DNA of 64,000 bases from an uncultured Candidatus Binatia bacterium (lineage in GTDB: Bacteria; Desulfobacterota; Binatia; UBA9968; JAJDTQ01). Shown in pieces: positions 1,818 through 12,138 of this stretch. The first letter of the stretch is position 1; every line of letters starts with the position of its first letter. The stretch spans positions 3,424,001 to 3,488,000 of the forward strand of contig OZ244070.1 in assembly GCA_965215605.1 (NCBI GenBank). The letters run 5' to 3'. The notes under the pieces are model-generated. The model did no database searches. It worked only from the letters and a program-made list of their open reading frames with translations, and was not told where the DNA came from. The translations under genes were made by a program, and so were the position numbers.

Positions 1818-2621
1818 TCAGCTCTCGCTGATATCGATCATCACCCCGTCGGGATCCGCGAGCTGGTATTCGCCGAACTTGCACTTGGCGAACAGATCCA
1901 GACGCGCCTCCGCCTCCGAGCCCCCGCCTACCGGGCCCGGACTCAGGTAGGGGTTGCGCTTTGACAGCTCTTCGAGCCGGTCCTTGACCGCCTGCACGCT
2001 TTCCACCTTGAAGCCGATATGGTCCAGTGCCGGGCGCTCGATGCCGGTGCCCGCGTAGTCGGAGATCTTCCAGGGCGCGATGATCAGGGTGACCCGGCCG
2101 TCGGTCAGGTAGGTGTTGGGATCGTCCGCGGGTTTCTCGGTTTCCAGCAGGTCGAAGACGTCCCGGTAAAATCCGGCCACCCGCTCCGGCTCCACCGCGC
2201 GCAACACGAAATGCTTGACGTAGCGGTCCGCCTGGCGATCGCCGTCCACGTAAACGTCCGTGCGGTTCTCCATCCCTTCCTGGGAAAGGTCGAAGACGTT
2301 CCCGGCGGGATCGTGGGTGCTGAGGCCGGCGAACGGGCGATTGCTCGGCCGTTTCAGGATATGCACCTCTGGGTACTTGTCATGCATGCGCGCGGCCACG
2401 GCCTCGACGTCGTCCACCTCGAAGCCGAAGTGGTCGAACCCGCCCTGACGCCCGGGGCGGCGCGGGTTGATGTTGATGCCCACGTAACCGTCGCTGACCA
2501 CCGAAGCGCTCTCGATCCGGGCCCGCGCGGCGGTCGTCATGCCGAAAACGGCTTGGTAGAACTTCTCCTCGATGGCGTAGTTCTCGCTGACGATGGCCAG
2601 GTGCTTGATCTTCGTGCTCAT
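1818..2621 (-). CDS. VOC/glyoxalase family protein with two VOC domains
   Basis: KIKHLAI..FDHFGFEV..DPAGNVFDL repeated as VKHFVL..LDHIGFKV..DPDGVMIDI. Confidence 0.85.
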   Translation of the reverse strand: MSTKIKHLAIVSENYAIEEKFYQAVFGMTTAARARIESASVVSDGYVGININPRRPGRQGGFDHFGFEVDDVEAVAARMHDKYPEVHILKRPSNRPFAGLSTHDPAGNVFDLSQEGMENRTDVYVDGDRQADRYVKHFVLRAVEPERVAGFYRDVFDLLETEKPADDPNTYLTDGRVTLIIAPWKISDYAGTGIERPALDHIGFKVESVQAVKDRLEELSKRNPYLSPGPVGGGSEAEARLDLFAKCKFGEYQLADPDGVMIDISES

Positions 2622-2647
2622 GGCTTGGTCCCTCCCTTTCGTGCGTT

Positions 2648-2676
2648 GTAGGGGCGGGTCAAAAATCCGCCCGAAC
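2648..2676 (+). repeat. GTAG-type REP-like palindrome
   Basis: GTAGGGGCGGGTCAAAAATCCGCCCGAAC, intergenic; related to 4196-4224 and 40205-40222. Confidence 0.55.
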
Positions 2677-2686
2677 CCGTATCGAA

Positions 2687-3622
2687 TCAACCTGCCCGCA
2701 GCGCCAGCTTGCCCCGAGTATGACCCGTTTTGCTCATCTCGTGGGCCTTTCGCGCCTGGTCCAGCGGAAGCGTATCATGGACGTGGACCCGGAGGTGCCC
2801 CTGTTCGGCCAAGTCGGCGATGGCGCGAAGCTGCGGCGGATCGGTGCGGACCGAGACGTGCTGCGCCCGGACCCCGCGGGTCGCGGCTTGCTCCGAGCTG
2901 GGTCTCCCGCGAATCGAAGCCAGCAGGCCGCCGGGCTTGAGAACGCCCCAAGACCGTTCCTGGACATCGCCGCCGACGCAGTCCAGCACCACGTCTACGT
3001 CTTCGGCCAAGTCCTCGAAGCGGCTCTCGCTGTAGTCGATGATGCTGTCGGCGCCCAACTCGTTCAGGAACTCCCGGTTGCGTGCCGACGCCGTGCCGAT
3101 GACGTGAGCGCCTTTCCATTTGGCGAGCTGGACCGCGATGTGGCCCACGCCTCCGGCGGCCGCGTGAATCAGGACGGTTTGGTCTGCCTGAAGGCCGGCC
3201 GTGTCGAAAAGGGCCTGCCACGCGGTCAAGGCCGCCAGCGGCAGCCCGGCGGCCTGCGCATCGTCCAGAGTGTCGGGTTTGGCCACCAGATCCGAGGCCG
3301 GCGCGGCGACGTATTCCGCGTAGCCGCCGCCTCCCCAGTGCCAGCGCACCATCCCGCAGACCCTGTCGCCGACCTTGAAGTCGGAGACGTTGGCGCCGAG
3401 CTTCTCGACCACCCCCGACACGTCCCAGCCCGGGATGAAGGGGAACGGATCGTCGAGCCGCGACGCGACTCCCTCGCCAGCGCAGGTCTTCCAGTCCACC
3501 GGATTGATGCCGGCGGCATGAATCCGCACGAGCACCTCGCCGTCCCGGGGTTCCGGTGTCGGCGCCTCCTCGACCCTGAGGCTGTCGAGACCGCCGAACT
3601 CGTGTATCCGCACGGCTTTCAT
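2687..3622 (-). CDS. NADP-dependent oxidoreductase (MDR/quinone oxidoreductase family)
   Basis: MKAVRIHEFG, GINPVDWK, PGWDVSG, LIHAAAGGVG, GHTRGKLAL. Confidence 0.92.
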   Translation of the reverse strand: MKAVRIHEFGGLDSLRVEEAPTPEPRDGEVLVRIHAAGINPVDWKTCAGEGVASRLDDPFPFIPGWDVSGVVEKLGANVSDFKVGDRVCGMVRWHWGGGGYAEYVAAPASDLVAKPDTLDDAQAAGLPLAALTAWQALFDTAGLQADQTVLIHAAAGGVGHIAVQLAKWKGAHVIGTASARNREFLNELGADSIIDYSESRFEDLAEDVDVVLDCVGGDVQERSWGVLKPGGLLASIRGRPSSEQAATRGVRAQHVSVRTDPPQLRAIADLAEQGHLRVHVHDTLPLDQARKAHEMSKTGHTRGKLALRAG

Positions 3623-3677: not shown

Positions 3678-4139
3678 CTACGAGCCTTTGCCCTCCGCGT
3701 CCCAATCGAACATGCGCCGCCGGCGTCTGGCGTTGAAGTTGATGACCTCCAGCAGCAGTCCATCGGGATCCGAGAAGAAAGTCGCGTAGTAGTCAGGGGA
3801 GTACTGGGTGTAGGCCCGCGGCTCGGTTGCCTCGATACCGGCCGCCCGAAGCTCCCTGCAGGCCCGGTCCACGGCCTGCTCGTCCACCACGCGAAAGCAC
3901 AGGTGGGACGGAGACCCCGGCGCGGCGCGCGATTCCGCCGGACCATCCGGCTCGTTCTGGCGCACGATCCAGTAGCTGAGGTGGCGGTTGTCGTAACGCG
4001 CCCGTGGCGAAACCTTGTTGGACACCGCGCCCTTCCGGAAGCCCAGGACCGGCATGACCCGGTCGTAGAAGGCTTCGGCCGTGGCAAGGTCCCGGACGGG
4101 GACGAAGACGTGGTCGATACAGATGACTTCAACGGGCAT
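3678..4139 (-). CDS. VOC family protein
   Basis: IDHVFVPVRDL, HLCFRV, YYATFFSDPDGLLLEV; start at MPVEVICIDH. Confidence 0.85.
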   Translation of the reverse strand: MPVEVICIDHVFVPVRDLATAEAFYDRVMPVLGFRKGAVSNKVSPRARYDNRHLSYWIVRQNEPDGPAESRAAPGSPSHLCFRVVDEQAVDRACRELRAAGIEATEPRAYTQYSPDYYATFFSDPDGLLLEVINFNARRRRRMFDWDAEGKGS

Positions 4140-4195
4140 GGTGTTTCCTTCCCCGGCGCGGTCCGGGAGCCTGTATCGGCCGTGGCTCGGTGCGG

Positions 4196-4224
4196 GCACG
4201 GGCGGGTTTGAAACCCGCCCGTGC
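4196..4224. repeat. REP-like palindrome
   Basis: GCACGGGCGGGTTTGAAACCCGCCCGTGC, perfect inverted repeat around a central G. Confidence 0.6.
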
Positions 4225-4284
4225 ATCGGACATCTGATTTCTACGGCGCCCGGGCCGGGGGCGTAAACGGGACCGGACATGAAC

Positions 4285-5610
4285 TCAGTGTGCCCGGCAG
4301 GTCCAGTTCCGGCTGCCCCACAGGTCCGTGCCGCCGATGATGGCGTCGACGGCGTCGAGGCTCATGGCGTCGAGGGCCGAGACCACGGGGGCGCCGGGGT
4401 AGTTGAGGACCTGGAGCCGTTCGTAGGCGCCGACCACCCGGTCGGCGGGCGGCAGCTCCAGGGCGAGGTCACGGCTGCCGGTGCTCACCACCGCGTCGGC
4501 CGTGTCATCGTAGAACAGCAGCGGCGAGTCCACGCCGTCCTTGCCGCCGTACTCGTAGGTGACCAGCACGGTCTTGATCCCCTTCTGCTCACACGCGTGC
4601 ACGGTCAGCATGACCTCCAGGAAGGCATTGCCGGAGCCGATCCAGGTGACGAGGGCCGCCTCCGCGCCCAGTGCCCGGGCCACCTGCGCCGCGTTGTGCG
4701 CCGCCACTTCCTTCTCCCGGAAGCTCTCGAAGCGTATGCGTTGCAGCACCACGCCGGCGAAATCGAGCCGGCGGCCGTGCTCCCGGGACACGCTCAGGGC
4801 CAGCGGCTGGTTCTGCCAATCCCAGGTGGTGGGCGAGTAGGCGATGGTCTTCATGGTGCTGCCCGTGACCGCGCCGTCAAGCAACTCGTTGGGGTGAACC
4901 ACGGTGCTCAGCGATTCGCGGACCGGCAGTCCGTAGTAGCCCAGGCCGGAGGGCAGATGCTCCGACTCGGTGATGCAGCCCACGATGACCACGGTCTTGG
5001 GCAGGCGCGGGTTTCCGTGGGCGGCGCCGTGCGTGTGGACGTCGGCGGGCTCGGCGGCGACGGTGGCCTCGGCAAGCCGTTGCGCCACGCGGTACTCGGC
5101 GCCTTGGATCGCCTGATGGGCCTGGGCCTCGATCAGGCCCGACGGGAGCCGGAAAGTCAGCACGAGGCCCGGGAACCGGCTGAAGCCCGTGAGTTCCGCC
5201 CCCGGCCCCCACATGTCGAGGATGGCGCTTCGCTGGGCGGTGGTGCCGGTGCGGATGGTGCCCTCGTATTCGGCCGTGGTGATGAGGGTCATGCCGGACA
5301 GCCGGTGGGTACGGCCGGCGCCTACCGCAACCACCGGGTTGGTGATCCCGGGGAACACCTGACCGGTGCCGTCCACCTTGACCCTGGGCTCCACCACGTC
5401 GCGGATGCCGGTCACCCGCGCCCGCTCGCCGGGACGCACGATGTCGAGCCTGGCGGAGAGTATCCTGGGATCCCGTGAAGCGATCTCCAACAGCTCCGCC
5501 TCGGCCACCTCCAGGTTCCGGCCGGCGTAGTTCAGCTTTCCGCCGAAGTGAAGATCCTCTACGGGAAAGTCCGCCAGCTCCAGCGGCGTGGCATGCCGGG
5601 CGAGGCTCAT
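4285..5610 (-). CDS. glycine/sarcosine/betaine reductase component B, GrdE/GrdI-like subunit
   Basis: IVRPGERARV..DVVEPRVKV, VGAGRTHRLSG, DMWGPGAE, HPNELLDGAV, GIKTVLVTYEYGGKDG; ATGA overlap with upstream selenoprotein gene. Confidence 0.88.
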   Translation of the reverse strand: MSLARHATPLELADFPVEDLHFGGKLNYAGRNLEVAEAELLEIASRDPRILSARLDIVRPGERARVTGIRDVVEPRVKVDGTGQVFPGITNPVVAVGAGRTHRLSGMTLITTAEYEGTIRTGTTAQRSAILDMWGPGAELTGFSRFPGLVLTFRLPSGLIEAQAHQAIQGAEYRVAQRLAEATVAAEPADVHTHGAAHGNPRLPKTVVIVGCITESEHLPSGLGYYGLPVRESLSTVVHPNELLDGAVTGSTMKTIAYSPTTWDWQNQPLALSVSREHGRRLDFAGVVLQRIRFESFREKEVAAHNAAQVARALGAEAALVTWIGSGNAFLEVMLTVHACEQKGIKTVLVTYEYGGKDGVDSPLLFYDDTADAVVSTGSRDLALELPPADRVVGAYERLQVLNYPGAPVVSALDAMSLDAVDAIIGGTDLWGSRNWTCRAH

Positions 5611-6935
5611 GACGCCGCTTCCGGCGTGAACACGGTGCTTTCCTCGATTTCTTCCTCGAGCGCGTTGAGGGCGGTTTCGACGATGGACTTGCGCAGCTTC
5701 TCGTCGACCTCCGGCGGCAGGCTCGGGTCGCCGCAGGGATGGGGAATCTTGACGCCCTTGACGATGCGGCTGGCGCCCACCTGCTCCGCCAGCGGGAACA
5801 TGGCGCTGATCATCGACACGGGAACTCCGGCACGGTCCAGCTCTTTACTGATCACAGCTCCGCTGCGACTGCAGGTGCCTCACGTGCTCACCAACAGCAC
5901 GGCGTCCACGCTGTTGGCCTTGATCTCCGCGGCAATCTCCTGGCCCACGCGCTGCATGGCCGCGGGCGAGCCCTGGTTGCCGGGTATGACGTAGTAGGCG
6001 GGGTAGAGGTCCTCGTATTTCCCTTCCTGCTGAAGCTGCCGCAGGGCGTCCAGGGGAACCCCGTAGAGTGGATTCGCATTCATGTTGGCGACGTTGTAGC
6101 CGCCGTGCACGGCTTCCCACATGCCGGGCTCCATGGTCTTGAGCTCCGCCACCGGGTACTTGCGCCAGAACGTGTTGCGGAAGGTCTTGAATCCGTCCGG
6201 GTTCCCCCACGGCACCACTCCGCTGGTGGTGACCAGCGCGACCTTTGCCTTTCCCACCTCTTTCACCGCGGCGGCCGGCGCCACCCGGTCCCAGGTCTGC
6301 ATGGGAATCTCGGTGGCGAAGGCCCGGCCCTCGATCTTGTCGAGCAGCATGTCGAGGGCGCGGTCCGCTCCGGTCCGGCCGCTCTGCTCCTGGATCCGGA
6401 TGCCCCGGGACAGATAGCCCTCGTCCTCTGCCGCACCGACGGGATCTTCCCGCAGCCGCTTGAGGACGAACCGGGCCAGATCTTCCAGAGCCTTGCCCAT
6501 GCCGCCGGCGGTTTCGGTGGTGGGGAAGAGGAACAGCCGTGGGTCGTGGTATTCGCGGTAGGTGTCCACCGCCGGGTTGTCCTCGTGCATGGCGGTGACG
6601 CACACGCGGTCCAACTCGGCGGCTGCCATGTGGCCGATCTCGACACAGGCCAGACCGTAGCGGCCGGCATTGAACGCCGGTCCGAGCACGATCACTTCCG
6701 CCTCCGCCGCCGCGATCTCCTTCAAGAGGGCCGCCCGTGCTTCCTCGGGCTTCTCGTGAAAGTGGTTGTCGCCGAAGTAGATGGTGGGCGCCACCTCCGC
6801 TTCGCCCTGCAGCAGCCGTTGCAGCCCCCGCGACGGCCCGGCCAGGCTTTCAAGGGTTCCGGCGGCGACAGCCGCCTTCTCTTCGCCTCCGATGCCCGCA
6901 AAGAACTGGTTGACGACGTGTGCCACGCGTTTCAT
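5607..6935 (-). CDS. glycine/betaine/sarcosine reductase family selenoprotein B (GrdB/GrdF/GrdH-like), Sec at codon 352 (TGA 5880-5882)
   Basis: NQFFAGIGGEE, GPAFNAGRYG, KVALVTTSGVVPWGNPD, HGGY; in-frame VLLVST-TGA-GTCSRSG continuing into KELDRAGVP..IPHPCGDP; 442 aa. Confidence 0.93.
5848..5874 (-). promoter_or_regulatory. bacterial SECIS-like hairpin
   Basis: mRNA UGA GGCACCUGCAG-UCGCAGC-GGA-GCUGUGA-UCAG; 7-bp stem with one GU pair and a GGA loop starting 18 nt after the UGA. Confidence 0.75.
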
Positions 6936-7070
6936 CACGGGCCTCCTTCCGGACGGGAGAATACGGTTTACACGGGGACTCGCCTTTGCGTATCCTCCAT
7001 TAGCATCTTCGCACAAGTTATGCACGGGTCTCATCCAACGATAAACCACACTCGACAACCCCGTCGCCGG

Positions 7071-8519
7071 ATGCTGCGATTCACCGTTGTCGCGCTGTTG
7101 GCGCTGGCCGCGGGCGGTTGTGGTCCAGACCGTCCCGGAGCGCCGGGCGCGGCCCGTGAAACGGAGGCCGTGGCGCGCGGGAACCTCCCGCACCTTCCGC
7201 CGCAACGGCCGGCGGATTCGGTCAACGCTCCCATGGCGTATCTCGGCCGATCCCTGCACGTGAACCCCGGAGTGGCGCCGGCGGCCGATGTTGTCCCCAT
7301 TGTGCGTGACCATGGGGGCGTCCGGGTGGCGTATGGGCGCGTCATCGACGGTGTGCACCGGGACGAGTTGACCCGCTATCTCGATGTGGAGGTGGAGACG
7401 ACTCCCGCCCCCTTGAAAGCCTTCCGGTTGAAGCGGACCGTAAGGGTCGTGGAGGGCGCAACCGTCGAGATGATGGACCACACCGTACGCGCGGTGCAGT
7501 TGATCAACGCGGCGCTGCCGCCGGAGGGGCGGCTCCGGTTCGACGATACCCCTGTCCCGATGGAATTCGTCGAGAGCCTGGAGGTTTCCTGCAAGGGTTT
7601 CGTGTGCGAAAGGCCCGGCGTTCCGCTTGGGGACATCTTGGTCCAGTTCGCGCCGGCGGAAGTCTGGTTGGGGCCGGAAAGAGCGAAGGAGAAGCCGCAT
7701 GTGTCGGGCCAGACGGTCCTCAACGGGTCCACCCGGAACTTCGATGCCGGGAGCCTGTCGAGTTGGGCGGGGCGGGTGTGGGTGGATCCTGTTCGAGCCA
7801 CAGGGGAAAGACGTCTGCTCGTGCTGGTCCACGAGTTGCTCCACACACTGGGGCGCGGGCATGCCGACGCCGAACGGTTCCCGGCATCGGTCATGCGTCC
7901 GGTGTCCGACTCGATACGGAGGGGCGAAATACTCTATCCATTGGATCGCGCGGCGCTGCTCGCGGCCTACCGGATGCTCGAACCATCCGCGACGCGGGGC
8001 GAGATCGCCCAGGCTCTGGGGTCCTGGGAGGATACGTCAACGCATGTCGCAGGCGAGTTGGATGGGGGAGGCGGAGACGCAAGGTTCGGTGTCGGGCTCC
8101 GGAACGGGCTGGCGCGGCCATGGGCTTCCGGATCGGCGCCGCGGACCGGTGTCGCGGAGAACGGGAGCCTCTCCGGGCGCGTCACTTGGTCGGGCCGTGT
8201 TCTGGGGTTCACCCGTGAGGGCGAGGCCGCCGCCGGCGCGGCGGAGCTCACGATCCGTCCGGATACCCTCGACGGCACGCTGCGCCTGACGGCGCTGGAG
8301 TCGTGGCCGGGCGGACAGCCGCCAGGGGCGGCGGGCACCGGGAGGCCGTTGCGCGAGGGGAATTCGACCTATCGTGTGGTCGTGCACGGGAACAGGTTCG
8401 TGGCCGACGGCGGCGACGCGGGTCAGGTCACCGGCGCGTTCTTCGGCGAGTTCCACGCGGGTATGGGCGGAGTCATGGAGCGGGACGGCCTCGTGGCGGG
8501 TTTCGGGGGAAGGCGATCG
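7071..8519 (+). CDS. putative lipoprotein with metzincin Zn-metalloprotease motif and C-terminal TbpB-like beta-barrel; end inferred, frame actually open to 8933
   Basis: signal MLRFTVVALLALAAGGC; HELLHTLGRGH plus SVM Met-turn; C-terminal VTGAFFG..GGVMER..LVAGFGGRR. Confidence 0.7.
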
Positions 8520-8556
8520 ACGCCGCGCCGTGCCCGCCAGATCCTTGCCGGGCCGC

Positions 8557-8739
8557 GCCCTCGCCCAGGTTCACGTCGAGCTGGAGGAGGCGAGCCATGT
8601 GTCCGGCGCCAAATGGCTGACCCTCATGCGGCGGATCGTCCTCCCTCTGGTGTTGCCGGCGTTCATCGTGGCCCTGGCGATTCTCACGGTGGGCGGGCGT
8701 TGGACGGTGGCCCGCATGAGCCGCCGGCAGGAGTCGTGA
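8557..8739 (+). pseudogene. ABC transporter permease fragment (EAA loop)
   Basis: ALAQVHVELEEASHVSGAKWLTLMRRIVLPLVLPAFI; no start codon or N-terminal part. Confidence 0.65.
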
Positions 8740-8804
8740 GCCGGATAGACGCGGGAAGCTTGGTTGACGGCGGCAATGGCGCTACGTTATGGGGAACGTC
8801 TCGC

Positions 8805-8891
8805 GCCGGGATGGTGGAATGGGTAGACACACGGGACTTAAAATCCCGCGGGCCTCGGCCTGTGCCGGTTCAAGTCCGGCTCCCGGCACCA
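8805..8891 (+). tRNA. tRNA-Leu(TAA)
   Basis: GCCGGGA acceptor, anticodon arm CGGGA-CTTAAAA-TCCCG, long variable arm, GTTCAAGTC, encoded CCA. Confidence 0.97.
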
Positions 8892-8917
8892 GAATCACGA
8901 ATCCAGCCGTCCACTCG

Positions 8918-10852
8918 TCATCCCTGCTCGTAAAGGATCTCACCCGTCTCGCCGGTGTCGTAACCGCCGAGGGAGTGCATGGCTCGCCGGAATCCCTCGG
9001 AGCGGACCACCGCCAGCAGCGTGGCCCCGGCGGACGACTCGTAGAAGGGCCGCAACATCAGAAGATCGTATTGCTCGTCGCCTACCGGAATGAAATCCAA
9101 CTCAAGGGCATCGGCGGCCGAAAGAATACCCAGCCCGGCGTCGGCGAGGCCGCTGGCAACGGCAACGGCGACGGCCATGTGCGTGAACTCTTCGTGCTCG
9201 TAGCCCTGGATGGCGCTCGCATCCATGTCGAGTTGTGCGAGCTTGTAGTCCAGCAGTACCCGTGTACCCGAGCCCGGTTGGCGGTTGACGAACCGCAGGC
9301 CCGTCTTTCCCAAGTCGGCGATGCCCGACACTCCCTTGGGATTGCCGCGGGGGACCAGCAGGCCCTGCCGGCGCCTGACGCAGTGCACGAGGACGGCGGG
9401 CAACCCTGGAAGCACCCGCTTGATGTCCGGGACGTTGTAGGCGCCGGTGGCCGGGTCCAGCAGGTGGGTGCCTGCCATGTGCGTCTCGCCGCGGCGGATG
9501 GAATGCAGTCCGCCGAGGCTGCCGACGTTGGCGGTGGCGATCTTGAGCCGCGGGTCCAGGCGCTTGAGCTGATCTTCCAGCACGCTGATGGAGAGGTCGT
9601 GGCTGCCGGTGCACAGGACCGTGTGCTCCACTTCTTCGGGTGAGCGCAACAGCTCGACGTCCACCTCCTCGCCGGCGTTGATGCCCTCCACCATTCCCGG
9701 AATCCGCAGGAAGCCGTCGGCCCGCACCATGGTGCTGATGACGCCCGCTCCCCGCGCCAGCGGCACGGCCAGGAGCCTTTCTCCGACTCTTCCCAGGGTG
9801 ACCCGGACGAACTCCTCCAGGCCCAGCCGGGAGGGGATCTTCCGGGGCGCAACGGCGCGCACCCGCGCGGGAGAGGCGGGGCCCGCGCCCAGAAGGCGTT
9901 GCAACGCGGGCTGGAGGATCTCCCGGGCGATGACGATGGCGGAGACGGGGTAGCCGGGGATGCCGATGACGGGCCGGCCCGCCGCCACTCCCAGGACGGC
10001 AGGTTTGCCGGGCATGACCTCGATGCCGTGCACCAGGAGCTCCCCCGCGCCGTCGATGACCTCGGCGGTGAAGTCGTGCTCGCCGGCCGACGAACCGGCG
10101 ATGAGCGCCACCAGATGGTTTTCTCTCAAGGCTTCGCCCAGGGCCTGTTTCAGCAGGGCGGGGTCGTCAGGGACGGCGGGAAGGACCGCCGGCGCGCCGC
10201 CGCATTCGGTGACCATGGCCGCCAGCACGGTGGAATTGAAATCGATGATCTGGCCGGCCGCGGCCGGCTCCCCCGGAGCGGTGATCTCGTCGCCGGTGGG
10301 CAGGATCGCAACCCTGGGACGCGCCCTGACCCGCACGGTGGTGTGGCCCGCCGCCAGGATGGCGCCGAGGTCGTAGGGCCTCAGGCGGTGGCTGCGCGGC
10401 AAAAGCAGCTCGGTGGCCACCACGTCCTCGCCCACCAGGCGCACGTTCTGCCACGGGGTGGCGGCCTGGTCGATGGACACGGTGTCCTCATCGACCTCCC
10501 GCACCTGCTCGATCATGATCACCGCGTTGGCCCAGGGCGGCAGCGGCTGGCCGGTGTCCAGGTAGGCGAACCGGCGGCGCGGCGCGGCCTCGTCCGCGAG
10601 CCGCCGGAACTCGCGGGGGGCGAATTCCGTGGCTCCGAACGTGTCCTCCGCCCGCACGCAGATCCCGTCCATGGCGGACCCGTGGTAGTGCGGCGAGGAA
10701 ATCTTCGCAAACACCGGCTCGGCGGTGACCCGGTGGAGCGCCTGGCCGACGTCCACCGTCTCGTCCTCCAGGCCGGTTTCGTCAACGCGGCTCAGGAACA
10801 GCTCGCGCGCCTGCTCCAGGGGGGTTTTCTTGAGGTACCGTTTTCGCGCCAT
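8918..10852 (-). CDS. molybdopterin biosynthesis protein MoeA fused to a C-terminal PBP/LysR-type substrate-binding domain
   Basis: SAMDG, TGDE, PGKP, GIPGYPVS; C-terminal GSHD, VGSLGGL, FVNRQPGSGTR. Confidence 0.92.
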   Translation of the reverse strand: MARKRYLKKTPLEQARELFLSRVDETGLEDETVDVGQALHRVTAEPVFAKISSPHYHGSAMDGICVRAEDTFGATEFAPREFRRLADEAAPRRRFAYLDTGQPLPPWANAVIMIEQVREVDEDTVSIDQAATPWQNVRLVGEDVVATELLLPRSHRLRPYDLGAILAAGHTTVRVRARPRVAILPTGDEITAPGEPAAAGQIIDFNSTVLAAMVTECGGAPAVLPAVPDDPALLKQALGEALRENHLVALIAGSSAGEHDFTAEVIDGAGELLVHGIEVMPGKPAVLGVAAGRPVIGIPGYPVSAIVIAREILQPALQRLLGAGPASPARVRAVAPRKIPSRLGLEEFVRVTLGRVGERLLAVPLARGAGVISTMVRADGFLRIPGMVEGINAGEEVDVELLRSPEEVEHTVLCTGSHDLSISVLEDQLKRLDPRLKIATANVGSLGGLHSIRRGETHMAGTHLLDPATGAYNVPDIKRVLPGLPAVLVHCVRRRQGLLVPRGNPKGVSGIADLGKTGLRFVNRQPGSGTRVLLDYKLAQLDMDASAIQGYEHEEFTHMAVAVAVASGLADAGLGILSAADALELDFIPVGDEQYDLLMLRPFYESSAGATLLAVVRSEGFRRAMHSLGGYDTGETGEILYEQG

Positions 10853-10884: not shown

Positions 10885-12138
10885 TCAGAAAAGGAGCACC
10901 TCCACCTCTTCTCCCCGTTCCAGTCCTTCGCGGTTGAGGTCGATGCGGACCATGCCGTCGGCCTTGACCAATGTGAAGATGGCGCCCGACTTGCTCGGGA
11001 GCGGCGAGGCGTGGAGCGCGTCGCCGCGCCGTTCCAGGGTGACGCGGAGGTAGTCCTCGCGGCCGGTCTGCGACGACACGTTGGTGTCCATCACGGCCCG
11101 GACCGTGCTGCGCCGTGGGACCGCGGCCGGCGCGCTCTCGCCCGACAGGGCGCAGATCAACGGCGCCGCGAACAGGTCGAATATCACCAGCGCGGATACC
11201 GGATACCCCGGGAGCCCCAGCACGGGTTTGCCCGCGGCCCGGGCGTAGATGGTGGGTTTGCCCGGGCTGACGGAGATGCCGTGAAAGAGGATGCCGGCAT
11301 CGGGCAGCGACCGGATCGCGTCCACCGCCATGTCGCGGGCGCCCATGGAGCTGCCGCCGGACAGCAGCACCAGGTCGCCCCAGTCCAGTCCGGCGGCCAG
11401 CGCGGCGCGCAGGTCGCCGGCGTCATCGGCCACGACGCCGAGGTCGTTGAGATCTGCGCCGCACTCGGCCACGAGCCCCGCCAGCGCAGGCTGGTTGATG
11501 TTCCGCACCTGCCCGGGACGCGGCTCCCGGTCCGGAGCGACGATCTCGTCGCCGGTGGAGATGAGGGTCACGCGCGGCTTGCGGTAGACCGGCACCGAGG
11601 CTATGCCGATGCCGGTCAGCGCGCCGAGGTCGTGGGCCCGCAACCGGCGTCCACGGGCGAACACCGGGTCGCCAGCCTGGATGTCGTCGCCGACGCGGAT
11701 GACGTTGAGCCAGGGCGAGGCGGCCCGGTAGATCTCCACCGTACCGTCGCCGGTTTCCTCGGTGTGCTCGACCATCACCACGGCGTCGCTTCCGGGCGGG
11801 AGCATGCCGCCGGTGGAGATGCGCATGGCTTCGCGGGGGAGCAGCCGGCGGGTGACTTCCCGGCCCATCTCCACGGTTCCCGCCAGCGCCAGGTAGGCCG
11901 GCAGACCGGCACTGGCGCCGAAGGTGTCCCGGGCCAGGACGGCGTAACCGTCCATGCCGGCCCGGTCGAAGTGGGGCAGGTCGGCCCGGGAATGGAGGTC
12001 CTCGGCCAGGACGCGGCCCCGGGCCTCGACGGTGTCGACCGTCTCGGCGTCCACGGCGGACACCCGGCCAAGCAGGTCCAGGGCCTCCGCGGGCGTCACG
12101 ACCTTGAAGAAGGCCTTGGGGGTCGGGGGCGTGGGCAT
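10885..12138 (-). CDS. moeA: molybdopterin molybdotransferase MoeA
   Basis: PHFDRAGMDGYAV, ISTGGMLPPGSDAVVMVE, STGDE, SPGKPT, GLPGYPVS. Confidence 0.93.
   Translation of the reverse strand: MPTPPTPKAFFKVVTPAEALDLLGRVSAVDAETVDTVEARGRVLAEDLHSRADLPHFDRAGMDGYAVLARDTFGASAGLPAYLALAGTVEMGREVTRRLLPREAMRISTGGMLPPGSDAVVMVEHTEETGDGTVEIYRAASPWLNVIRVGDDIQAGDPVFARGRRLRAHDLGALTGIGIASVPVYRKPRVTLISTGDEIVAPDREPRPGQVRNINQPALAGLVAECGADLNDLGVVADDAGDLRAALAAGLDWGDLVLLSGGSSMGARDMAVDAIRSLPDAGILFHGISVSPGKPTIYARAAGKPVLGLPGYPVSALVIFDLFAAPLICALSGESAPAAVPRRSTVRAVMDTNVSSQTGREDYLRVTLERRGDALHASPLPSKSGAIFTLVKADGMVRIDLNREGLERGEEVEVLLF

Follow-up and report, generated by a model that had tools for sequence, protein, structure and literature searches.

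The selenocysteine (Sec)-containing, substrate-specific B proteins of glycine-reductase-type complexes are described as GrdB for glycine, GrdF for sarcosine and GrdH for betaine, in systems of the Eubacterium acidaminophilum and Clostridium type. The canonical GrdB active-site motif is given as U-x-x-C-x-x-C, and the fluoroacetate protein FarB is described as having no CxxC (PMC13188914, PMC10838667); a U-x-x-C motif is given for the family PF07355 (PMC13188914). Among the partner proteins, FarE is stated to carry, like the betaine protein GrdI, no processing cysteines and not to be a proprotein (PMC10838667), and the pyruvoyl peptide of C. difficile GrdE is placed at aa 242-266 (PMC9908766). 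Here we describe a gene of this family in a 64,000-nucleotide stretch of DNA (the window, C1:3424001-3488000) from the 4.06-Mb assembly (8 contigs, 97% complete) of an uncultured Candidatus Binatia bacterium. With a probability that we put at roughly 0.9, the minus-strand gene at 6935..5607 is predicted to encode the ~47-kDa Sec subunit of a protein B with its own substrate specificity, part of a glycine-reductase-type complex (GrdB/GrdF/GrdH family), with the UGA at codon 352 recoded.

The window protein resembles GrdB, GrdF and GrdH in its homology over the full length, in the position of Sec in an S-T-U-G/U-x-x-C motif near residue 350, in a Sec insertion sequence (SECIS) hairpin directly 3' of the UGA, in an adjacent GrdE-family partner gene, and in the presence of GrdA and GrdC in the same genome. 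It differs from them in scoring below all three substrate-specific cut-offs, in its motif U-x-x-C-x-x-S, and in its Binatia-like host, which encodes a haem-copper oxidase.

Translation of 6935..5607 with TGA read as U gave 442 residues with U352, followed by the terminal TGA. On the minus strand the codons GTG AGC ACG TGA GGC ACC TGC read V-S-T-U-G-T-C, with the TGA at 5882..5880. A standard table-11 listing of open reading frames (ORFs) splits the gene into 5880..7862 (-) and 5607..5855 (-, 82 aa); the former is over-extended, the real start being the ATG at 6935. For comparison, 21 related loci were collected in a scan with one genome per species, most of them labelled as Candidatus Binatia metagenome-assembled genomes. 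Identity to the window gene was 82-96% in 19 of these loci and 61-63% in the other two. The start M/VKRVAHVV occurs at the same position in 19 of the 21 orthologs, and the distant loci L047 and L048 begin with MTTIVHVV. At its other end the gene abuts its partner, the terminal TGA overlapping the ATG of the partner gene in an ATGA junction (Table 1).

Since the window has a G+C content of 66% and is full of long spurious ORFs, an open frame past a stop is weak evidence when taken alone; the case for more than chance is supported by homology and by comparison across loci. The read-through protein matches TIGR01918 with 428.4 bits (cut-off 65.45), residues 3-436 being aligned to positions 1-430 of the 431 in the model. 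U352 aligns beside model position 347, and the 90 post-UGA residues searched alone still gave 93.7 bits (E 1.2e-26) over TIGR01918 positions 347-430. All 21 related loci carry a TGA at the homologous codon and a frame that runs on without interruption for about 90 codons before the next stop. Within codons 353-442, synonymous differences far exceed non-synonymous ones in all 15 pairwise comparisons with orthologs of equal length (28:6 against L041 and 20:4 against L050, for example), which argues that the frame behind the UGA is under purifying selection. Elsewhere TGA is an ordinary stop in this organism: of the 46 window ORFs that are at least 150 aa long and pass a codon-position G+C filter, 23 terminate with it.

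The hairpin behind the UGA consists of seven core pairs, Watson-Crick or G.U, and one outer G.U pair. It spans 11-29 nt past the UGA, with a UGA-to-loop spacing of 18 nt. Folded as the bare 19-nt element it reaches -9.4 kcal/mol (z -3.6), and none of 200 shuffles was as good. The rules for bacterial SECIS (bSECIS) elements quoted in the legend to Fig. 2 of PMC13188914 are a loop of 3-9 nt that starts with GG and a stem of 4-16 bp, together with a spacing of 16-37 nt and a minimum free energy of -7.5 kcal/mol or lower. The hairpin agrees with these rules as given in that legend, with its 3-nt loop beginning GG, 7-8 bp, 18-nt spacing and -9.4 kcal/mol.

Conservation of the element was seen at the nucleotide level. 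The stem nucleotides are invariant in 22 of 22 sequences, synonymous sites on either flank vary, and at the third loop position 20 sequences have A and 2 have T. When the window gene was compared with 15 orthologs of equal length, the hairpin (gene nt 1066-1085) was the longest nucleotide-invariant run of the 1329-nt gene, with 20 nt, the runner-up being 14 nt long. It covers six consecutive invariant codons (Ser, Arg, Ser, Gly, Ala, Val); elsewhere in the gene just 22% of comparable codons show no change. Both GrdB paralogs of this genome and further paralogs from relatives also have a GGN-loop hairpin in the corresponding register, the outer G.U pair being confined to the ortholog group. In an alignment of 18 sequences (17 distinct, paralogs included), 90.4% of cells are paired. 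Compensatory changes were found at one pair that goes from A-U to U-A or U.G and at another that goes from C-G to U-A, and five cells are changed on both sides. The resulting covariation score of 0.183, compared with 0.088 for shuffles, was reached by none of 500 shuffles, and slid registers gave at most 0.079.

The genome also encodes the machinery for Sec insertion. The genes selD, selB and selA lie side by side at C1:1984272-1988572 (374, 380 and 580 bits, respectively), and a tRNA-Sec with anticodon TCA was found at C1:259405-259495 (73 bits against a cut-off of 47), which ARAGORN likewise reported as tRNA-SeC with anticodon tca. All four exceed their cut-offs. The selD gene (C1:1984272-1985198) itself holds one in-frame TGA, and SelD of this genome is probably a Sec-containing protein as well. 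Taken together, the comparisons indicate that UGA352 of the grdB-family gene is recoded as selenocysteine and that the core interpretation is correct. They bear out a sequence-only reading of the locus, which had seen a GrdB-type selenoprotein hidden in two pieces by the ORF caller: the read-through translation, the TIGR01918 match, the conserved TGA and the SECIS all agree with it. The coordinates and features that it had given for the gene were all correct, including a 7-bp hairpin with a GGA loop starting 18 nt after the UGA, to which the outer G.U pair is now added. It had further named an alignment at position 352 and a genome search for selA, selB, selC and selD as checks; the first showed the TGA retained in 21 of 21 related loci, and the second found the machinery present as selA, selB, selD and tRNA-Sec.

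If the TGA were a true stop, the locus would encode a 351-aa GrdB-like protein followed by an 82-aa ORF that is unrelated or not translated, or it would be a decaying pseudogene. This is the split that gene callers give, and the Pfam GRDB model ends exactly at the Sec position. Moreover, none of the best 120 homologs in a collection of 5.8 billion proteins reaches past the codon, and query coverage is 79% at most; 117 of them are 350-353 aa long and the others 282, 299 and 361 aa. However, database homologs cut at the same codon are the usual truncation artefact known from selenoprotein annotation. A true stop is also at odds with the match of the post-UGA residues to the family model, the purifying selection on them, the TGA kept at every related locus, the conserved and covarying SECIS and the full Sec machinery of the genome, and we consider it very improbable. 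The same holds for a read-through in which TGA would serve as a sense codon or would be decoded by near-cognate insertion of Cys or Trp. Nothing specific favours such decoding, although read-through alone cannot tell which residue enters. The frequent use of TGA to end window ORFs argues against its being a sense codon in general, selA, selB and selD are accompanied by a dedicated tRNA-Sec (TCA), and the position is the Sec site of the family. In addition, PMC1794560 states that in organisms that contain Sec, Cys homologs of GrdB are very few or absent.

Table 1. Features of the grdB-family locus and of related genes elsewhere in the genome (window positions, or contig positions where marked C1 with locus positions in brackets)
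Feature	Position	Strand	Remarks
grdB-family gene, complete	5607..6935	-	442 codons + terminal TGA, Sec at codon 352
In-frame UGA read as Sec (U352)	5880..5882	-	motif L-L-V-S-T-U-G-T-C-S-R-S-G
Post-UGA coding part	5607..5879	-	codons 353-442 + stop; ORF caller sees only 5607..5855
SECIS hairpin GUCGCAGC-GGA-GCUGUGAU	5851..5869	-	7-bp core + outer G.U, GGA loop
Shine-Dalgarno-like GGAAGGAGG	6942..6950	-	6 nt ahead of ATG 6935; read from the sequence, putative function
GrdE/GrdG/GrdI-family partner, 441 aa	4285..5610	-	PF09338, 294 bits
GrdB paralog 1	C1:684609-685877 (L052:6607-7893)		U-x-x-S-x-x-S; GrdE-like gene upstream
GrdB paralog 2	C1:1888264-1889526 (L053:7259-8560)		U-x-x-C-x-x-C; GrdE-like gene upstream
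Fourth, orphan GrdE-like gene	C1:2097494-2098666 (L054:6375-7676)	-	61% identical to window partner
VOC/glyoxalase-fold protein	3678..4280	-	PF00903, 43 bits; homolog downstream in 16/21 related loci
Zn-ADH-type quinone oxidoreductase (PIG3-like)	2687..3622	-	present in 10/21 related loci
Second VOC-fold protein	1818..2690	-	present in 16/21 related loci

To place the window protein within its family, its scores were compared with the cut-offs of the substrate-specific models. The equivalog cut-offs were reached neither for glycine GrdB (TIGR01917, 404.7 bits vs 602.2) nor for sarcosine GrdF (NF040794, 404.9 vs 800) or betaine GrdH (NF040795, 382.8 vs 775). The protein is thus placed by these models in the GrdB family and in none of its characterised specificities. 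A search of PDB sequences with the read-through protein gave no match at E <= 0.01. The D-proline reductase protein PrdB (TIGR04483) matched residues 224-428 with 84 bits, below its cut-off of 300; the two proteins are homologous in the C-terminal Sec domain with its U-x-x-C, but PrdB is only ~240 aa long and has no counterpart of the N-terminal 220 residues. The active-site motif of the window protein, U-G-T-C-S-R-S (U352, C355), corresponds to U-x-x-C-x-x-S, and the paralogs of the same genome have U-x-x-C-x-x-C in one case and U-x-x-S-x-x-S in the other.

The window module shares with GrdH/GrdI and with FarB/FarE a partner without a self-processing cysteine. It is unlike them by score, as seen for GrdH above and for the partner, which lies below the FarE equivalog cut-off (106.5 vs 675). 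FarB is said in the sources cited above to lack both cysteines of the CxxC, whereas the window protein keeps the first, and neither a betaine transporter gene nor a radical-SAM gene adjoins the window module.

A GrdE-like gene is present in all 21 related loci and lies directly downstream of grdB in 20. For an alignment of the partner we used 118 full-length sequences among the best 150 from a search of 1.84 billion representatives, together with the four GrdE-like proteins of this genome (122 in all). At the column that follows a conserved H-P-N-E-x-x-D-G-A block, Cys occurs in 6 of the 122. In four of these six the motif is G-N-C and the Cys lies at residues 239-246, which fits the start at aa 242 given for the C. 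difficile GrdE pyruvoyl peptide (PMC9908766). Two of the four G-N-C clusters, the sole ones with named members, belong to Eubacteriales or Bacillota (for example Anaerovorax, Ihubacter and Hominibacterium). The window partner has Met253 at this pyruvoyl-Cys column, which was set by residue number and not by aligning a characterised GrdE. In its orthologs, where the motif was located in 20 of 21 loci, the residue is Met, Leu or Thr and in no case Cys. No invariant Cys is common to the four GrdE-like proteins of this genome. The residue at this column and the precedent of FarE and GrdI suggest that the window partner, like those two proteins, does not undergo processing to a pyruvoyl enzyme, and the substrate of the window module may therefore need no Schiff-base activation.

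The other components of a Grd system were located elsewhere in the genome. GrdA (NF040748, 207 bits vs 130) is encoded with one in-frame TGA at C1:2160263-2160703 and adjoins GrdC (512 bits, cut-off 450), the pair lying at C1:2160260-2162247 (L051:8255-10344). Among the 31 genomes of the order, several of which are assembled as single contigs, GrdC was above the cut-off in 22 and GrdA was found in 23, in each case with one TGA. Three full-length GrdB-family genes are present in the genome under study, each with one TGA and an adjacent PF09338 gene. In the window module the B gene comes first and its stop overlaps the start of the E gene, whereas E precedes B in both paralogs. A thioredoxin/DsbD-like protein precedes the paralog with U-x-x-S-x-x-S, and TctC/TctA/TctB transporter genes follow the paralog with U-x-x-C-x-x-C. 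The orphan GrdE-like gene has an SDR oxidoreductase and proteins without an NCBIfam match as neighbours and no GrdB-family gene beside it.

Several observations weigh against the interpretation of the gene as protein B of a glycine-reductase-type complex, or limit how far it can be taken. For GrdD (NF040747), a search of this genome (97% complete) at E <= 0.001 found nothing, and none of the 31 genomes of the order had it above the cut-off, the best score being 28.8 bits over a partial region; the textbook route to acetyl phosphate can thus not simply be assumed. The agreement among orthologs is partly inherited, as 19 of the 21 are close kin. With regard to the hairpin, an Rfam scan of 5700-6000 at E <= 10 returned no SECIS family and only one chance lncRNA (long non-coding RNA) match, and in contexts of 66, 53 and 43 nt its folding z-scores were -0.11, +0.24 and -0.58, no better than shuffles. 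Folding energy was rejected as a SECIS test on account of these values. The step from the partner to a substrate without Schiff-base activation depends on one alignment column and on the statements of one paper (PMC10838667), and what the pyruvoyl group does is described as a matter of debate (PMC9908766). Finally, gene context was tried as a clue to the substrate, and the VOC proteins, quinone oxidoreductase, amidohydrolase, lipoprotein and MoeA gave none.

Within protein C, it is GrdD that bears the acetyl thioester and makes acetyl phosphate. If this role is right, the lineage, in which GrdD was not found above the cut-off, is unable to run the textbook pathway to its end as described. Protein C, taken as GrdC plus GrdD, was found here as GrdC, with no match to GrdD. 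No replacement for GrdD was found beside grdC-grdA in this genome or in the relative G047. The latter has a compact grdC-grdA-grdE-grdB arrangement, placed by search coordinates and ORF positions, with no extra gene and no grdD. In the genome under study a 202-aa ORF directly follows grdA (L051:7587-8195, -); it has no NCBIfam match and is too short for GrdD (~380 positions). Judged on titles and abstracts, no publication about GrdD-less systems was found.

A canonical, glycine-specific GrdB with clostridial-type function, whose low equivalog score would reflect phylogenetic distance only, appears unlikely, although not as improbable as a true stop at codon 352. It would account for the similarity to TIGR01917 over the full length (404.7 bits), for the STUG and U-x-x-C motifs, for GrdA and GrdC in the genome, and for the name "glycine reductase" that JGI pipelines give to relatives. 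These names carry little information, because they switch between glycine and betaine reductase among equally distant relatives. The score of the protein remains well below the glycine cut-off, Met253 occupies the pyruvoyl-Cys column in the partner, GrdD was not found in this genome or above the cut-off in the order, and the motif is U-x-x-C-x-x-S, whereas a paralog of the same genome has U-x-x-C-x-x-C. A bolder proposal goes beyond the membership of the gene in the GrdB family, and we offer it tentatively, as something that may well prove wrong but that we rate above glycine specificity. This Binatia lineage might possess a variant Grd system with one GrdC-GrdA pair, no GrdD, several B modules and non-pyruvoyl partners, the partners not being pyruvoyl proproteins because the GrdE-like proteins share no conserved Cys. 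If so, the window module would reduce an X-CH2-COO- compound other than glycine, release of the carboxymethyl group would bypass the GrdD step from acetyl thioester to acetyl phosphate, and Grd chemistry would be put to a non-Stickland, non-fermentative use.

For the preferred reading, a Sec-containing protein B, a course of events can be outlined by analogy with the described complexes. SelB carrying Sec-tRNA(Sec) would bind the 7-8-bp hairpin with its GGN loop, so that UGA352 is decoded as Sec. The GrdB-family protein would pair with the GrdE-like protein encoded by the downstream gene that overlaps its own, and Sec352, within U-x-x-C, may attack the alpha-carbon of a substrate of the X-CH2-COO- type and expel the leaving group. 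The carboxymethyl group would then pass to the selenoprotein GrdA, encoded elsewhere beside GrdC, and the three B modules of this genome would share this one GrdA-GrdC pair.

Two VOC proteins and the quinone oxidoreductase are co-directional with the grdB-grdE pair. This synteny may be inherited rather than functional, because the related loci are close kin. The sequence-only reading had placed the gene in an organism with O2-dependent dioxygenases and, from that, outside the usual clostridial Stickland setting. The dioxygenases did not hold up: the proteins have the VOC fold only and score ~19 bits on true extradiol dioxygenase models with cut-offs of ~320, and no dioxygenase was found among 20 further window genes scanned, which are of housekeeping or hydrolase type. 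The unusual setting is nevertheless reasonable on other grounds, since a haem-copper oxidase subunit I is encoded in the genome (497 bits) and the lineage is therefore probably able to respire oxygen, but its basis in dioxygenases fails and a non-clostridial setting is not new.

On the other side of grdB, a divergent ORF at 7071-8930 (+) encodes a protein with a lipoprotein-like N-terminus, with a Cys after a hydrophobic leader, and a HELLH motif (HExxH). No Pfam or other family match was obtained for it. Its frame runs through a tRNA-Leu (8805-8891), so that the true 3' end is ambiguous, and about half of the related loci have a homolog of it upstream of grdB. It is followed by tandem MoeA genes at 8918-10852 (-) and 10885-12138 (-), the first of which carries a fused PBP-like domain (PRK14498 type, 763 bits).

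Within the class, full-length GrdB-family genes were found in a minority of 81 sampled genomes (11 above the cut-off), mainly in this order, and every match listed had an in-frame TGA. Short PrdB-like matches of ~200 aa, with one TGA each, occurred in many of the 81 genomes, which suggests a selenoprotein family widespread in the lineage. One such ORF lies in the present genome at C1:369515-369835 (L025 ~1400-1900, +), with an in-frame TGA and the motif V-P-Y-U-P-Y-C. GrdA or GrdB is listed in PMC1794560 for Syntrophus aciditrophicus, Desulfuromonas acetoxidans, the microaerophile Symbiobacterium thermophilum and Treponema denticola. Binatia and Deltaproteobacteria proteins that are 56-59% identical to the window protein already bear the NCBI name "family reductase selenoprotein B". 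A literature search, run without most subscription journals or supplements, found no publication that ties Binatota/Binatia to glycine-reductase-type selenoproteins. The gene itself is unsurprising, because the family, the recoding signal and the occurrence outside clostridia are already established.

For the annotation of this genome, the 351-aa and 82-aa calls need to be merged into one selenoprotein gene, and the same is due for at least five more TGA-containing genes, namely those for the two GrdB paralogs, GrdA, SelD and the PrdB-like protein. For the biology of the lineage, the apparent lack of GrdD could mean a different end of the reaction pathway. Of modest interest is a B module outside the glycine, sarcosine and betaine specificities. 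Aerobes, according to a 2026 review, rarely keep selenoproteins (PMC13188914), and the occurrence of many Sec enzymes in a lineage with aerobic respiratory genes is likewise of modest interest.

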